Translations under genes and position numbers: made by a program
The notes under the pieces: generated by a model
What the model was told of the DNA's origin: nothing
Seen by the model: only the letters and a program-made list of their open reading frames with translations
Databases searched by the model: none
Shown: positions 1-6,471 of the stretch, in pieces
Layout: each line of letters starts with the position of its first letter
How positions within the stretch are numbered: the stretch's first letter is position 1
IMG/VR virus record: IMGVR_UViG_2537561829_000009
Coordinates: 1-6,471 of that record
Reading direction: 5' to 3' (one strand)
Origin: a virus
Lineage: Duplodnaviria > Heunggongvirae > Uroviricota > Caudoviricetes
DNA length: 6,471 nucleotides

Positions 1-315
1 TTCGCCATATTTTCTATATTTTTCAAGCCAGTTGCATACAGTACCAAAGGCTGGTATTCCGTGTTTTACCGCTACTTCACGAACAGAAAAACAGTCATCC
101 ACGACTTCTTTTACTACTGTGAGTTTTAACTCAGCAGAATAGCGTCCTTTTTTACCCGTAAGTATGCTTATCCCATGTTCCCGATAGGCATAAGCCCATT
201 TTCTTACTGTGCAGGGACTGATACCGTACATCCTTGCTACAGATTTCAGACTCAACTCTCCCTCCAGGTACTTTTCTGATACTACCTTTTTGAACTCCAA
301 TGAAAACTTTTCCAT
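1..315 (-). CDS. IS3-family (IS150-group-like) transposase OrfA, N-terminal helix-turn-helix part; start codon inside the window, 3' end runs off the window start
   Basis: Translating the minus strand from the ATG at 315..313 gives 105 codons with no stop down to position 1: MEKFSLEFKKVVSEKYLEGELSLKSVARMYGISPCTVRKWAYAYREHGISILTGKKGRYSAELKLTVVKEVVDDCFSVREVAVKHGIPAFGTVCNWLEKYRKYGE. This ORF is not in the supplied track because it is truncated by the window edge. It has the duplicated HTH pattern (YGIS..TV.KW...Y.EHG, then S.REVA..HGIP...V..WL.KY...GE) that I recognise from OrfA proteins of the IS150 group of the IS3 family. The region is visibly more AT-rich than the phage genes next to it. The family call is from memory, not a search. 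Confidence 0.7.
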   Translation of the reverse strand, partial: MEKFSLEFKKVVSEKYLEGELSLKSVARMYGISPCTVRKWAYAYREHGISILTGKKGRYSAELKLTVVKEVVDDCFSVREVAVKHGIPAFGTVCNWLEKYRKYGE

Positions 316-362
316 GCATCCTCAGTTTTTGGTCTGGTGTCTAACCTTTGGGGCGCAGTTCA
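1..362 (-). mobile_element. Partial insertion sequence (IS3 family), one end only; inner boundary approximate, somewhere in 316..362
   Basis: OrfA occupies 1..315. Read on the minus strand, the 47 nt upstream of its ATG are TGAACTGCGCCCCAAAGGTTAGACACCAGACCAAAAACTGAGGATGC. A TGAAC start about 45 nt before orfA is typical of IS3-family terminal inverted repeats, which would put the IS end at 362. The other IS end is outside the window, so the inverted repeat cannot be confirmed. Confidence 0.45.
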
Positions 363-2818
363 TTACCAATGGACACAACACCGCTGGTATTATTAATTGT
401 AATCGGTCGCAAACTGTTCCATGAACCTAACGTATCTCCTGATGCTGTTAGCATGAAATATGTGCTGCCGCCGTCATTACGGATAAAGAACCCATAGTTA
501 CCGTAAGCAATGCGGAAACCATTTGCATATTTTGAAACGATCTCACCAGAAGACGTTACCCCCCCAGATAATGTGCCACCTGAAAGCGGTAATGCTCCTA
601 CATCAGAAGCTGTTGGTTTGTTTCTGGTGTTATAAGAACGACGCCAGCCTGGCGCATAACCACTTCCATTGTACACATAAATAAATTCCGCATTATTAAC
701 ACCACCATGACCCGATGTTGTTGTCGTTGTAACACGAATAGTGTAATTGCTTGTTGCCTTATTACTAAACACCTCAATCACGGAACCAGATAGATCGATC
801 CTACCGCAACCAGTGTCGTCTATATAATTATTGTTGGCGTAAACCCATGAGCACCGTGCAATCCAATATTTGTTTGAAAATGCACCCTGATTATTTAGCC
901 ACGTTATAAACTGAGCAGTCGTAAATGCTGTTCCGTTACCACTATTTAACCATCCGGCGGCAGCGGTTGGTGCGTTTATATCAGCCGGCTGAGGTCTAAA
1001 TCCAGTCGTGTAAACCTGCTCCCAACCACTTTCAAAACCATAACCGTCTCTTGAAGAACGGTAGAACAGACCACCATTTCTGTAATGCGCCTTCATCTGC
1101 AGGGTCCGGCAACTTCCGACTCCGGTATAGAAGTTAACCAGAATATAGCTGTCGCCAGAGCGGGTGACATTGTAAGCGCCTGATTCGGCATTCCAGGGAA
1201 CGCCACCATCCGCATCGGCATACGTATCCGTTGCCCTTCTGGCAAAAGCAGCCACATGCGCGGCGGTTAAAGTGATATCCGCAGTCAGTGCTTTACCGTT
1301 AACTTTTCGGTTAGATGGCACCCTGCTATTCGCATTGTCATTGGCTGCTTTAACTGCTTTTGGCGTTGCGGCCAGCGATTCACTGGTGCTATCAACAGCA
1401 CTGCTAAGTTTCACAACACCTTTAGTTGTAAGGCTTGCGTCTTCCATCGCAACTGCACCGGCAATCTCTTCAGCACGATCAGCAGCAGCTTCCGCACGGG
1501 TCGCAGCGGATTCAGCAGCAGTTTTGCTCTGAGATGCTGCCGTCGCACTGCCTGCCGCCTCTGTTGCTTTCGTGGATGCCGTCGTGGCGCTGCCCTTCGC
1601 TGCTGACGCCTGTCTGGTCGCCTCATCTTTTGAAGCAGACGCAGATGATGCCGATGACGCCGCAGAACTGGCTGACGATGCGGCTGCCGCCTTAGAGGAA
1701 GCAGCATTGTCTGCTGAAGTCTTTGCATTTGTTTCAGAGGTTTTTGCTGCAGAAGAAGACCTCGCTGCTGCAGTGGCTTGCTCAGTGGCTTTGCCCGCCT
1801 TCGTTGTGGCTGTTGAAGCGGATGATGCGGCGCTTTCTGCCGATTTTCCGGCGGCGGTGGCACTGGCTGAGGCCTGCCCGGCACTTGTTGACGCGGCACT
1901 GGCAGACGACGCAGCCGCTGTTTTTGAACCTGCCGCAGCTGAGGCGCTCTGTCCCGCTGCTGTTTCAGAAGACTTAGCGTTCGTCTCGGACGTTTTTGCC
2001 GCCTTCGCGGAATTTCCTGCCGCCGTTGCCGAGGAAGCTGCATTACTGGCACTTGATGATGCATTCGTTTCTGATGATTTCGCTGCCTCTTTTGAGGCCG
2101 CCGCACCCCGTGCCGAGGTGGCAGCTTCTGACGCCTTTGTGGTCGCGGCGGATGCAGAAGTGGCTGCAGATTTTTGTGACGCTGCCGCATTCGTTTCTGA
2201 CGTTTTCGCGGCACTGGCACTGGTAGCTGCCGCGCTTTTTGAGGACTCTGCGGCGGCAGCACTTTTTGATGCTTCAGTGGCCTTTGTTGATGCTGTTCCT
2301 GCGCTGGAAGACGCTGACTGAGCCGACGACGCGGCCTGTCCGGCTGACGTGCTGGCTGCACGTGCTGAGCCTGCAGCATCAGTTGCACGGGTTGCCGCCT
2401 CACGGGCTGATGTGCCGGCATCGCTGGCTGACTTCTTCGCGGCTGCCGTGTTCTGTGCCACTGCGGACGCGTTACGCGCCACCTCTTCCACCATCAGTTC
2501 AAAGCGGCGCAGTGCCTCCGGACGGACATCATCCTCCGTCATGGCACCGAGAAAATCATTCAGCGTACCCGGTTGTGAGTCTTCATACACGGTGATGGTC
2601 CCGGCATGCGATGGCGGGAAGCCTTCCACCAACAGAATAACGCTGTACTGACCGTACTCAACGTCCATGCTGTAACGCCCGGCTTCATCCGGATTTTCTG
2701 AGGCCACCGTGTTCGCCACCACCGTGGTGCTGTTACGTTTTGCTTTCAGCTGGATTGTACAGTTCTGTACCGGTTTACCTGCACCGTCTTTCAGTACACC
2801 TGAAATCTTTACTGCCAT
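341..2818 (-). CDS. stf: Side tail fibre protein Stf (lambda Stf-like N-terminus and Ala/Ser/Thr-rich rod; divergent C-terminal domain; probably 3'-truncated by the adjacent IS)
   Basis: The track ORF 341..2824 begins MNMAVKISG with a GTG; the likely true start is the ATG at 2818..2816, preceded by GGGGTGA as a Shine-Dalgarno about 6 nt upstream. The N-terminus MAVKISGVLKDGAGKPVQNCTIQLKAKRNSTTVVANTVASENPDEAGRYSMDVEYGQYSVILLVEGFPPSHAGTITVYEDSQPGTLNDFLGAMTEDD matches lambda Stf as I recall it. A long KTSETNA-type Ala/Ser/Thr-rich rod follows. The C-terminal part carries tail-fibre motifs (GALPLSGGTLSGGVT, GFFIRNDGGSTYFMLTASGD). The stop TAG is at 343..341, only 25 bp from the IS orfA start. Confidence 0.88.
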   Translation of the reverse strand: MAVKISGVLKDGAGKPVQNCTIQLKAKRNSTTVVANTVASENPDEAGRYSMDVEYGQYSVILLVEGFPPSHAGTITVYEDSQPGTLNDFLGAMTEDDVRPEALRRFELMVEEVARNASAVAQNTAAAKKSASDAGTSAREAATRATDAAGSARAASTSAGQAASSAQSASSSAGTASTKATEASKSAAAAESSKSAAATSASAAKTSETNAAASQKSAATSASAATTKASEAATSARGAAASKEAAKSSETNASSSASNAASSATAAGNSAKAAKTSETNAKSSETAAGQSASAAAGSKTAAASSASAASTSAGQASASATAAGKSAESAASSASTATTKAGKATEQATAAARSSSAAKTSETNAKTSADNAASSKAAAASSASSAASSASSASASKDEATRQASAAKGSATTASTKATEAAGSATAASQSKTAAESAATRAEAAADRAEEIAGAVAMEDASLTTKGVVKLSSAVDSTSESLAATPKAVKAANDNANSRVPSNRKVNGKALTADITLTAAHVAAFARRATDTYADADGGVPWNAESGAYNVTRSGDSYILVNFYTGVGSCRTLQMKAHYRNGGLFYRSSRDGYGFESGWEQVYTTGFRPQPADINAPTAAAGWLNSGNGTAFTTAQFITWLNNQGAFSNKYWIARCSWVYANNNYIDDTGCGRIDLSGSVIEVFSNKATSNYTIRVTTTTTSGHGGVNNAEFIYVYNGSGYAPGWRRSYNTRNKPTASDVGALPLSGGTLSGGVTSSGEIVSKYANGFRIAYGNYGFFIRNDGGSTYFMLTASGDTLGSWNSLRPITINNTSGVVSIGNELRPKG
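1470..2430 (-). repeat. Low-complexity Ala/Ser/Thr-rich repetitive coding region inside stf (fibre rod)
   Basis: Stf residues ~130..450 are almost entirely A/S/T/K/E/G with recurring units such as AAKTSETNA, KSSETAAGQSASAAAG and SSASSAASSASSA. The DNA is GC-rich and lacks stops in several frames, which produces the long overlapping track ORFs 1411..2421(-), 1572..2321(+) and others. Boundaries are approximate. Confidence 0.6.
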
Positions 2819-2828
2819 ATTCACCCCA

Positions 2829-2856
2829 CAAAAAAGCCCGCCAGAACCGGCGGGCT
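2829..2856 (-). terminator. Putative intrinsic (rho-independent) terminator between lom and stf, oriented for minus-strand transcription
   Basis: Perfect 8-bp stem 2835..2842 (AGCCCGCC) pairing with 2849..2856 (GGCGGGCT), 6-nt loop AGAACC. On the minus strand the hairpin is followed immediately by TTTTTTGTGGGG (complement of the A-run 2830..2835). The plus strand has no T-run after the hairpin, so it is unidirectional. It lies 27 bp downstream of the lom stop and overlaps the stf ribosome-binding region. Confidence 0.6.
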
Positions 2857-2882
2857 GTCATAACACTGTGTTACCTGGCTAA

Positions 2883-3482
2883 TCAGAACTTATAACCGAC
2901 ACCCACGATGAAACCGTCAGTGCGCCAGTCGCCACTGCCGGAGCCTTCATAAGCGACATCAATGGCCACGGATTCGGTCGGGTTAAACTGCACGCCAGCC
3001 CCCCACGCCAGAGACATGTTGCTGTGGCGACCGTCATCACTTCCGGTCAGCACATCGTGCGTTTTCCCCTTGTTGTCAGTTACGCGGAGATAATCCCCGG
3101 AGAAAGTCGACACACGGCTGTAAGCCACACCCACCATCGCATACGCGCTGAACCATTCATTCACGCGTACAGACGGCCCCGCCATCACGCTGAACCAGCG
3201 GTTACGCACGGAATCTTCATGCCAGCGGGTATCGCTGTAGCGCGTTTTTTGCTCATCCTCAGCATTGGCATAACTGAAGGACGTAATCAGCCCCAGCGCG
3301 TCCGTAAACTCATAACGGTATTTCACGTTAATCCCGTTCAGATTATCGCTGCCGGGAGCGTTCGTACGGGCATGAAGATACCCTGCGCTCAGTGTGGCCT
3401 GCTGCTCAGACGCCCATGCAGGCGCACCGGATACGGCCAGACAGATGGCTGCGGACAAAATGGCTGCACAAACTTTACGCAT
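2883..3482 (-). CDS. lom: Lom outer membrane protein (Ail/Lom/OmpX-type 8-strand beta-barrel; lambdoid prophage moron)
   Basis: 199-aa ORF with ATG at 3482..3480 and GAGAGG Shine-Dalgarno about 6 nt upstream. N-terminal signal peptide MRKVCAAILSAAICLAVSGAPAWA with an A-W-A cleavage motif. C-terminal ...GFIVGVGYKF ends in an aromatic residue, as outer-membrane beta-barrels do. The sequence is near-identical along its length to lambda Lom as I recall it (NLNGINVKYRYEFTD, RWHEDSVRNRWFSVMAGPSVRVNEWFSAYAM, LAWGAGVQFNPTESVAID). Position between J and stf matches the lambda gene order. Confidence 0.93.
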   Translation of the reverse strand: MRKVCAAILSAAICLAVSGAPAWASEQQATLSAGYLHARTNAPGSDNLNGINVKYRYEFTDALGLITSFSYANAEDEQKTRYSDTRWHEDSVRNRWFSVMAGPSVRVNEWFSAYAMVGVAYSRVSTFSGDYLRVTDNKGKTHDVLTGSDDGRHSNMSLAWGAGVQFNPTESVAIDVAYEGSGSGDWRTDGFIVGVGYKF

Positions 3483-3504
3483 AATTACCTCTCGCTTTTC
3501 TGCA

Positions 3505-3530
3505 ATAAAAAAGGCGCCATTTCTGGCGCC
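3505..3530 (-). terminator. Putative intrinsic terminator between J and lom, oriented for minus-strand transcription
   Basis: Perfect 7-bp stem 3513..3519 (GGCGCCA) pairing with 3524..3530 (TGGCGCC), 4-nt loop TTTC. On the minus strand it is followed by TTTTTTAT (complement of the A-run 3507..3512). It lies 20 bp downstream of the J stop and about 20 bp upstream of the lom Shine-Dalgarno. Confidence 0.6.
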
Positions 3531-3549
3531 CGTATATGGGTTATAAAAT

Positions 3550-5073
3550 TCAGCTGATACTGATGCCTGCGGTGGCTTTCTTCATCACCACAACCAGCAA
3601 ATCGCTGATACTTGCTGTGGGATACCAGTTATTTACCAGCCATGATGACACCGAAAACTCCAGCGTCATGTGGCCGCGACCGGCAGGCATATCAATAACG
3701 CCACTGTAAATCAGCGTATTATCCAGCGCGGTACGGTTATAAATTTCAGCACCGTTTTTCCGTACTATCAGGCGGCATGACGAATAAATATCGTTATTCT
3801 CCCTCTCATGTTTAGCGCCGCTGAATGCCACCGCCGGAATAACAATCTGCCGGTCAAACGGCTGATCGTCATAAACCCTGACGGTGATGGTCCCTGATGG
3901 CCACCGTTCCGGTGCACGGGAGTCCCGGGGGAAAGCTTTGCCCACTGTTTTAACGAGATCGCCTTCAATCTGGTTGGCGGACAGTTTTCCCAGAACCCGA
4001 CAGTTCTCGTTAATCGTGACGTTGTTGAGCGTCCCGGAGTTCGCATTCACGCTGCCACTGATATCTGCATTTTTCGCCGTCAGCCGCCCGTTCGGTGTCA
4101 GGGAAAATACCGGAGGATTACCGCCGCTGGTAATGGTGGGAGCCGTCAGGCGTTTCAGGAACACGTCGTTCATGAATATCTGATCGCCCTGCCCAACAAA
4201 CATCGGCTTTGTGTTGCCATTCGCAGGATTAATCATCGCAATCCTGTCTGCCGCCAGCAGCACCTGACTCTGCATGCCGTCAGGGGTGTTCTCAATACCG
4301 GCACCAATACCCGCGATATAAAGGCGTCCGTCCTGCATCTGCTGCAGCTTCACAGCCCACATGCTGTTCAGGTTATTATTTGTATCAACCTGAACCTTCT
4401 GTATCTGCTGGATCGCTGCACTCTGGTCTTCCAGTTTCTTATTGACGGTCTGTGTGATTTCATTGCTGACATCCGTAATGGACGTCCTGATTTCAGCCAG
4501 GTCAGGCGCAAGCTGACCGTTATCAATCTGCGTCCACAACTCCTGGGCCAGATGTGTTTTCCCGATTTCTCCTTTGAAAAAATCCAGATAGCCGGATGCG
4601 TCATCACTCGGCTGACCAACAGCCTCCACGAATGCCGATTTGCCAACGGTGTTCACACTGCGAACGTAAAAATAATAATTATGGCCCGGCCTGATATTGA
4701 TACTGGCGGCTATCCAGTACAGCGCCGTACCAAGATAGCGGGCTGTGGTTTCAACCTGCCTGATATCCGCAATCCGCTTTTCCGAGAACCAGAACTCAAA
4801 CTGTACCGTCGGGTCATAAACGGCAAGATGCGGCGTGGCGGTTATCTGAAAATAGCCCGGCGTCAGCTCAAGCCGCGACGGCACTGCAGGTGCGGCAATC
4901 CGGAACGATACCGATGCCGGATCGCCCTGCTGCCCCCACGCATTTACCGCCCGGACTGTCAGCCTGTAGTTCCCTGGCGCCAGCTGCGTGAAGCGGTATG
5001 TGGTTTCCGTCGTCCGGGCCGTGCTGACCAGCCGCTCACTGCCGTCATCCGCTGCCACGGTCAGGCGAAGCAA
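3550..5073 (-). CDS. J: Intact C-terminal segment of J (fibronectin-like and receptor-binding region); a gene caller would report it as a separate CDS
   Basis: Track ORF 3550..5073, 507 aa. The 5073 start is an ORF-finder artefact (TTG inside the J frame). Content is J-like throughout ([64 protein letters not shown]). The last ~150 aa differ substantially from lambda J. Confidence 0.55.
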
Positions 5074-5449
5074 AGCTCACCCCTTCACCACCTTCGGCGT
5101 GTCCCAGCGCCAGCACCTGTATTCCCCGCTGTCTGCGGTGACTTCGGCGGTCAGTGCTGCACGCTGGCGGCGTGACACCATTCACCGTGCCGCTCTGGTC
5201 CGTCAAAGTGCGCCCCGTTATCCACGATGGCTTCTTTTCCGGTACATGCTGCACGCAGTGATGGCATACGTACCGTCGTCGTTCTCACGGATACTCACAC
5301 AGCGGAACAGGCGCTGGCGCAGCGTCGGCAGCTTCAGCCCCCACACGCTGTATCGGCAACGCCGTCAGGAACCCGGCTCACTTTCACCTTCACGCCGTCG
5401 GTGAGGACTGACCTCCACGCTGACCGGATCCCTCCGTCAACCAGGCTTA

Positions 5450-6471
5450 TCAGCGTGGTCCGGAGGATGGCAGCGTGATTTCACGGTCGAGCGTCAGCGT
5501 CCGGGTCTGGCTGTTCACCGCCAGCACGCGCCCCGGTGCTGATACCGGCATAGTCATCATCGCAGATTTCAATGACATCCCCGGTACATGGCGAAGCCCT
5601 TCGCACCCACGCTGAAGTCCACGGTCTGCGTTCCAGCAGTTCGTTTTAATCAGCCACAGCCCGGCGCGGTGTGCCTGCCCCCGGCTGGTACAGCCAAAAG
5701 CATCCATCTTCGTGACGTTACGACCGTAACGGGCAATGGCCTGAGTATCTTCAACAAGCTCTGTCGCCGTCTCCCAGCCGTTGTTCGGGTCAATCCAGTT
5801 CACCTCAACGGCATTATGGCGGTCCTTCAGGGCGCTGAAGCTGTAGCGGAACGGCGCACCATCATCCGGCATCACCACATTACTGCGGTTATAGGTCCAC
5901 ACCTTATCTGATGGTCGGTCCTGCACGAACATCAGCGTCTGCCCGTTCCATACCGGCATACAGCGCATCGCCGAGCAGAAATCACTGAGCACATCCCACG
6001 CCTTGCGCTGTGTGGTCAGGTACGCATTACAGGTGATGCGCGGCTCCGTGCCGCCAAAGCCGTCCGGCACCGACTGGTCGCAGTACTGGCCGATGACATA
6101 CAGCGCCCATTTATCTACATCCGCTGCACCAAGACGTTTCCCCATGCCGTAGCGCGGATGGGTCAGCATATCCCACATACACCAGGCCATGTTGTTGCTG
6201 TATGCTGGCTTAAACGTTCCGTCCCAGATACCGCTGTATTGCCGCGTCTGCGGGTTATAGTTCGACGGCACCTGCAGAATGCGCCCGCGCAGATGATAAT
6301 TACGGCTCACCTGCTGGCTGCCGAACTGCTCCGAATCCACCTGTACGCCGACCAGTGCCGTGTTCGGGTAGCACTGTTTCACATCGATGATTTCGGTGTA
6401 TGACGACCAGAGCGTTTTGTTCTGCAGCTGGTCTGTGGTGCTGTCCGGCGTCATCCTGCGCATCCGGATAT
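5450..6471 (-). CDS. J: Upstream in-frame segment of J (5' end beyond window) ending at a premature stop created by frameshifts
   Basis: Track ORF 5450..6463, which continues in frame to the window edge at 6471. It is a clean J match down to about 5642; the last ~65 codons before the TGA at 5452..5450 alternate between J-matching and out-of-frame stretches. Confidence 0.5.
   Translation of the reverse strand, partial: IRMRRMTPDSTTDQLQNKTLWSSYTEIIDVKQCYPNTALVGVQVDSEQFGSQQVSRNYHLRGRILQVPSNYNPQTRQYSGIWDGTFKPAYSNNMAWCMWDMLTHPRYGMGKRLGAADVDKWALYVIGQYCDQSVPDGFGGTEPRITCNAYLTTQRKAWDVLSDFCSAMRCMPVWNGQTLMFVQDRPSDKVWTYNRSNVVMPDDGAPFRYSFSALKDRHNAVEVNWIDPNNGWETATELVEDTQAIARYGRNVTKMDAFGCTSRGQAHRAGLWLIKTNCWNADRGLQRGCEGLRHVPGMSLKSAMMTMPVSAPGRVLAVNSQTRTLTLDREITLPSSGPR

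Follow-up and report, generated by a model that had tools for sequence, protein, structure and literature searches.

Apparent mosaicism of a lambdoid J gene and its common receptor-binding tip

Gene J of the lambdoid E. coli prophage analysed here is very probably a mosaic of four modules ending in a working adsorption tip, which would dock into a porin. The first module would comprise the hub and FNIII part of the lambda/phage 21 type. The second would be a long helical shaft with the upper fibre, of the kind that phage 21 shares with the O157 Sakai prophages, the third a lower fibre that is conserved in all J types and would offer homology for crossing over, and the fourth a receptor-binding domain (RBD) of the VT1-Sakai/PPompW type. 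Recombinational mosaicism, i.e., ordinary module swapping among phages, is well supported by comparison of J sequences, and the gene in effect resembles J of phage 21, except that its tip is that of the O157 Sakai-type prophages. The tip itself is an ordinary, very common allele, already known and annotated, and nothing new in kind. The host cells accessible to a lambdoid phage, or to a lambda-based particle for DNA delivery, are determined by the J tip.

Gene content of the window and domain organization of J

The window, i.e., the whole stretch of DNA analysed, consists of 6,471 nt (positions 1 to 6,471 of the IMG/VR record IMGVR_UViG_2537561829_000009). It contains the J-lom-stf gene order of the lambdoid tail module, which is also annotated in Escherichia coli NCCP 13717 and in lambda (Table 1). 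The 5' part of J lies beyond the right end of the window. The J sequence starts at lambda J nt 533 (aa 178), and its stop codon occupies 3552..3550. The intact lom gene, a full-length Ail/Lom match, is located directly downstream of J, as in lambda. Positions 1 to ~380 represent the end of an IS3-family element, and stf is cut at about 357-380. This end of the window matches IS3-family transposase loci with 98-99% identity (window 1-380) in ~250 E. coli genomes, many of the copies being on plasmids. Since the match to NCCP 13717 begins at 357 and the stf ORF ends at 341, the insertion element truncates stf.

Table 1. Features of the window; all lie on the minus strand.
Feature	Position	Strand	Basis or remark
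J (tail tip / central tail fibre), 3' 86% of gene	6471..3550	-	DNA alignment to lambda J
J upstream ORF	6463..5450	-	
J C-terminal ORF, 507 codons, intact	5073..3550	-	
Two FNIII/Ig-like domains, lambda type	5070..4576	-	PF24421 Ig_J and PF24489 Ig_J_second
Left junction zone relative to lambda, end of FNIII-2 (VEAVG/QPSDDAS...GEIGKTH)	4621..4570	-	Mismatch density, maximum chi-square
Alpha-helical shaft and upper beta-prism fibre, 'long' type	4614..4270	-	Block identities
Lower beta-prism fibre, conserved across all J types compared	4269..4021	-	84% aa, 84-91% nt to lambda
Receptor-binding domain, 151 aa (NCRVLGK...AGISIS), Ig_GpJ_C	4005..3553	-	PF12421
FPR loop of the tip, 13 residues	3930..3892	-	4 residues longer than in phage 21/A8/phi330; lambda length
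ERENND loop of the tip, 12 residues	3813..3778	-	ENFNSNNQQS hairpin of A8/phi330/phage 21 reduced by 5-6 residues
Third loop of the tip, 10 residues	3648..3619	-	Counterpart of the phi330 rim-contacting hairpin
lom, 199 aa	3482..2883	-	PF06316 Ail_Lom, E = 2.7e-123
stf (side tail fibre), 827 aa	2824..341	-	PF08400 prophage tail fibre N-terminal domain

Sequences matching the window are found in lambdoid prophages of 5,109 out of 5,426 complete E. coli genomes. The closest is that of NCCP 13717, which aligns as a single piece with 98.6% identity over 357-6471 (6,115 nt). The corresponding locus adjoins potB and pepT, and is annotated as encoding an intact gpJ of 1159 aa (WP_492226186.1), Ail/Lom and a prophage tail fibre. 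The whole arrangement is also colinear in phages vB_EcoS-640R1 (96.4%) and PhiR55_1 (95.5%), the latter propagated on E. coli C, and is likewise carried by PhiR46_1.

For the domains of J we follow the nomenclature of Ge and Wang (2024) for lambda gpJ, namely, hub, FNIII-1, FNIII-2, alpha-helical shaft, beta-prism central straight fibre and Ig-like RBD with four distal loops (PMC11101478). The 507-aa ORF has the domain content of a lambda-type gpJ, with all four Pfam domains scoring above the curated thresholds: Ig_J (PF24421; residues 2-62; 67.6 bits, cutoff 29), Ig_J_second (PF24489; 64-166; 132.8 bits, cutoff 27), Phage_Tail_Tip (PF09327; 220-348; 108.7 bits, cutoff 22) and Ig_GpJ_C (PF12421; 377-507; 134.6 bits, cutoff 26.2). 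The last of these matches covers the full profile (E = 3e-39). Against the NCBIfam model lambda_TipJ (NF049904), the 507-aa ORF aligns over its entire length and scores 884 bits (positions 652-1163 of 1163) and the upstream ORF 714.5 bits (positions 181-517). The model cutoff of 1950 bits exceeds the sum of both ORFs, because the first ~180 codons lie outside the window and the region 5073-5450 is frame-scrambled.

The same order of genes and of J domains is found in lambda (PDB 8iyk, 8xcj, 8xck). In the helical shaft, J of the window has an insert of 28 residues, or four heptads (4432-4536), over lambda and h434. The long shaft is common to phage 21, BP-4795 and Sakai-type J genes, and the 1163-position lambda_TipJ model is close to them in length; thus, within this set of J genes, it is the short shaft of lambda that seems less typical.

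The best-scoring solved structure is that of the A8 gpJ (9wca, E = 8e-121), and the lambda gpJ-LamB complex is matched as well (8xcj, E = 1.6e-99). Judging from homology to these solved fibres, the RBD very probably has an Ig-like fold. The structural model of the C-terminal domain, which the preliminary description of this DNA had called for, was obtained but turned out to be poor: an AlphaFold2 monomer of the last 239 aa, built with 32 near-identical homologues, has a mean pLDDT of 44. In a Foldseek search, this low-confidence model retrieved 9wca, 8xck, 8xcj and 9wcb as the top matches, at TM scores of only ~0.4, and it lends the fold no independent support.

Identity blocks along J and module exchange

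The preliminary description had proposed that the C-terminal region of J departs from lambda J, and this divergence is real. DNA identity to lambda (NC_001416), scored in 100-nt windows, is 89-99% over 6471-4608, with the exception of one window at 84%, and drops to 17-62% over 4607-4208. The segment 4207-4008 is again similar (84-91%), whereas only 34-60% of positions match in the final ~450 nt (4007-3550). Uniformly high identity along the C-terminus is, therefore, not what is observed. The same blocks are seen at the protein level. In the two FNIII/Ig domains (lambda aa 653-805), 143 of 153 residues are identical (93.5%), versus 46% in the following segment that includes the shaft insert (aa 806-892), 84% in the lower fibre (70/83; aa 893-975) and 45% in the segment corresponding to the RBD (70/156; aa 976-1132). 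When the 151-aa RBD is counted from NCRVLGK, identity is 43.7%. The difference in identity to lambda between the FNIII domains and the RBD is significant (Fisher p = 6e-22).

The single best breakpoint by maximum chi-square falls at 4570; identity is 93.7% on its upstream side and 55.2% downstream of it. Mismatch density climbs from ~4621 and again at ~4025. Compared with lambda, the gene has two junctions or more (~4621-4570 and ~4025). Both peptides by which the divergent part had been delimited are located in the ORF 5073..3550, at 4572..4480 (ending in IRTS) and 3669..3553 (MTLEFSV...GISIS), and the point from which divergence had been said to start essentially coincides with the 4570 breakpoint. 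The accompanying claim that the upstream part of J is near-identical to lambda holds for the DNA but not for the reading frame, which is interrupted by 19 deletion events between 5073 and 5643 that remove 26 nt.

To place these blocks, J of the window was aligned with eight other J genes. The front half is mostly 90-100% identical at the nucleotide level to those of lambda, h434, phage 21, 640R1 and NCCP 13717, versus 57-88% for VT1-Sakai (Sp15), 204576 and BP-4795. In the shaft and upper fibre (4607-4208), identity is 92-100% to phage 21, VT1-Sakai, 204576, 640R1 and NCCP 13717, and 17-62% to lambda and h434. In the tip (4007-3550), it is 100% to NCCP 13717, 94-100% to 640R1, 96-100% to 204576, 89-98% to VT1-Sakai and 49-78% to phage 21. 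Thus, VT1-Sakai and 204576 combine a divergent hub and front half with a shaft and a type of tip that they share with the window (89-100% nt). Phage 21 J (~1160 aa) shares the front half, the long shaft and the upper fibre at 90-100% nt, except for one window at 86% that overlaps the deletions, and its tip is of a different kind. Phage 434 J (h434) belongs to the same family and has the conserved lower fibre, but its shaft is of the short lambda type. The whole mosaic is common to the window and to the J genes of NCCP 13717, 640R1 and PhiR55_1 (95-99% nt).

Sharply bounded blocks of identity that recur elsewhere in other combinations bear out the earlier suggestion of a modular exchange of the tip. 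That phage 21, VT1-Sakai and 204576 combine the same blocks differently argues for recombination, which is the only explanation of such a pattern. The lower fibre is the likely homology tract for tip swapping. Exchange at this conserved junction is already in use for engineering, as in the A8 and 1A2 chimeras, the latter being Eligo's second OmpC-binding chimera (PMC11338833). In the A8 chimera (9wca, 9wcb), the switch from lambda to donor sequence (SGTL/NNVTINENC) coincides with the tip boundary in the window.

The receptor-binding tip and its candidate receptors

The RBD of the window belongs to the VT1-Sakai/PPompW-type allele by near-identity over 151 aa (96-100%): it is identical to that of NCCP 13717 and shares 99% of residues with 204576, 98% with 640R1, and 96% with both VT1-Sakai and phage 2G7b. 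Lower values are found for phage 21 (69%), BP-4795 (67%), A8 (65%), h434 (47%) and lambda (44%). By sequence, the domain falls outside the LamB-binding lambda type as well as outside the OmpC-binding A8/phi330 type, from which it also differs in that the ENFNSNNQQS hairpin is 5-6 residues shorter. Its DNA is 100% identical to that of the annotated intact J of E. coli NCCP 13717.

This type of tip is among the commonest J tips of E. coli and Shigella prophages. RBD DNA of at least 95% identity is present in 2,157 E. coli records in the complete-genome set, and some match is found in 3,388 of the 5,426 genomes. In the phage collection, ~51-52 records carry the tip at 95% or higher amino acid identity, including Stx2a phages, O157 PPompW prophages and phage 2G7b. 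A search of 5.8 billion proteins yielded 876 clusters matching the tip. Among the best 120 of these, identity is 80-99%, with a single cluster below 94%; their source organisms are E. coli, Shigella sonnei and S. boydii, and most are partial sequences at contig ends. Since the tip is carried by plaque-forming phages, it can be taken as a working adsorption module.

Differences between the tip of the window and those of phage 21, A8 and phi330 are concentrated in three distal loops (Table 1). The phi330 (PV189401) tip is of the A8 type by alignment. The C-terminal strand of 18 residues is nearly identical between the A8/phi330 tips and the window, in which the FPR loop is longer by 4 residues. 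The phage 21 tip likewise has the shorter FPR loop, along with a long NFNSNNQQSYW hairpin. The ENFNSNNQQS hairpin of phi330 (E953-S962) was predicted by its authors to point into the OmpC barrel (PMC12502783). Its shorter counterpart in the window, the ERENND loop, is a hotspot of variation within the allele type (R/K, N/H/D, N/T/S). The tip is set apart from the lambda (LamB) and A8/phi330 (OmpC) tips mainly by the lengths and sequences of its distal loops.

Several J tips have assigned receptors. Lambda uses LamB (PMC11101478). Phage 21 natively uses LamB as well, whereas a single I1025T substitution extends its range to OmpC, and additional changes extend it to OmpF (PMC11336670). OmpC is the receptor of the A8 chimera (PMC11338833), for which the gpJ-OmpC complex has been solved (9wcb), and of phi330, as demonstrated by knockout and complementation (PMC12502783). 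Phage 434 uses OmpC, too. For the VT1-Sakai/PPompW tip type, no published experimental receptor was found in a literature search that included searches by phage name. The SNIPE paper, consulted for PhiR55_1, 2G7b and 640R1, gives ManYZ dependence only, and a 2026 preprint on receptor prediction concerns Drexlerviridae-type J rather than lambdoid tips.

By analogy with the lambda J-LamB and A8 J-OmpC complexes, we infer that the tip of the window docks into a porin. J would form a trimeric central tail fibre, the C-terminal Ig-like domain of which binds the outer-membrane receptor. The distal loops of the three RBD copies would enter the mouth of the trimeric porin, and binding would trigger a rearrangement of the fibre that opens the tail. 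The receptor is most likely a trimeric porin, either OmpC or LamB. Sequence identity cannot assign the receptor, because the A8/phi330 and phage 21 tips are 82% identical although they use different porins (OmpC and LamB, respectively), and the tip of the window is only 65-69% identical to either. That it binds a receptor different from that of lambda, as the preliminary description had suggested, is plausible from its sequence.

An alternative to a changed receptor is that the tip has diverged and still binds LamB. The tip of phage 21 is only 49% identical to that of lambda, though both phages use LamB (PMC11336670), and the FPR and ERENND loops of the window resemble lambda, rather than A8 or phage 21, in length. 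However, identity of the tip is 44% to lambda and 69% to phage 21, and loop length is not predictive, given that phage 21 (LamB) and A8 (OmpC) both have the long hairpin. Furthermore, the single I1025T substitution that lets phage 21 use OmpC indicates that receptor choice is labile in this family (PMC11336670). We consider continued LamB binding unlikely, while giving it real weight. Somewhat more doubtful is the proposal that the tip recognizes something other than the LamB of lambda and phage 21 or the OmpC of A8, phi330 and 434, for example OmpF or particular OmpC variants, with the short ERENND and long DSRAPERW loops as the specificity determinants. If the receptor of this common tip were assigned, host range would become easier to predict for Stx-converting and other O157-type prophages, and engineered particles would gain a further tip to choose from.

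Integrity of the J copy and of its mosaic

As written, J of the window is not a single uninterrupted reading frame. Between 5073 and 5643 there are 19 deletion events of 1-4 nt (26 nt in total) and zero insertions, compared to lambda and NCCP 13717. The deletions are seen relative to every J reference and split the gene into two ORFs with scrambled frames in between. They also set the copy in the window apart from J of its closest relatives, such as NCCP 13717 and 640R1. Columns polymorphic among five lambda-type J references account for 19 of the 26 deleted bases, versus 58 of the 661 retained ones (odds ratio 28, Fisher p = 3.6e-14). The coincidence of deletions with sites that vary among J copies points to a collapsed-repeat consensus rather than mutation, and the 19 deletions most likely arose as a consensus or assembly artefact when reads from several copies of J were mixed. 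The organism itself probably carries an intact J.

The deletions, together with the stf gene cut by the IS3-family element, could also be taken to mean that this copy of J may make no functional fibre, or even that the prophage is decaying and this J is a real pseudogene, with a tip that currently has no function in the strain. The J genes of VT1-Sakai and 204576 are frameshifted too, which would fit with decay. We nevertheless regard a pseudogene as improbable: besides falling at paralogue-variable sites, as consensus errors would, the changes are exclusively deletions and are confined to ~570 nt, whereas the last 507 codons are intact and the DNA of the tip has an exact counterpart in an intact J. 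In addition, stf is dispensable, as exemplified by laboratory lambda.

A related possibility is that the mosaic itself is an assembly chimera, in which reads of several J copies were collapsed such that a lambda-type front was joined to the tip of another prophage. The signs of a collapsed-repeat consensus at 5073-5643 would be compatible with such an origin, as would the fact that J fragments are very often found at contig ends in public assemblies and that most of the protein matches are labelled 'partial'. Nevertheless, the same front and tip are colinear in the complete genome of NCCP 13717 (98.6%) and in phages 640R1 and PhiR55_1, and there are no indels relative to NCCP 13717 and 640R1 outside of 5040-5700. 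A chimera is hence very improbable, and we rejected it on the grounds of the colinear arrangement in complete bacterial and phage genomes. That the tip diverged gradually without exchange, by rapid evolution or under diversifying selection, is hardly credible and was likewise rejected. Substitutions within the allele type do recur in the distal loops (e.g., RBD positions 62, 68-71, 110, 121 and 126), which means that diversification in place does happen to some extent, but the DNA identity to lambda shifts abruptly from block to block (~89-99%, 17-62%, 84-91% and 34-60%), synonymous sites are hit too, and the block combinations in phage 21, VT1-Sakai and 204576 are explained by recombination only.

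The VT1-Sakai J is annotated as a 'truncated protein by a mutation', and the translations of the VT1-Sakai and 204576 J genes contain 3-4 in-frame stops. Evidently, assembly of J genes is difficult, and database entries often show them as interrupted.

The stf ORF combines the prophage tail fibre N-terminal domain with a Gp34-like trimerisation domain. The two are separated by a long low-complexity stretch rich in Ala, Ser and Thr (~1400-2450) with a GC content of 56-63%. Two further ORFs of 336 aa and 249 aa, which overlap stf in other frames, look like by-products of this composition. Tandem repeats in the stf region are limited to one weak 21-nt repeat at 1468-1517.
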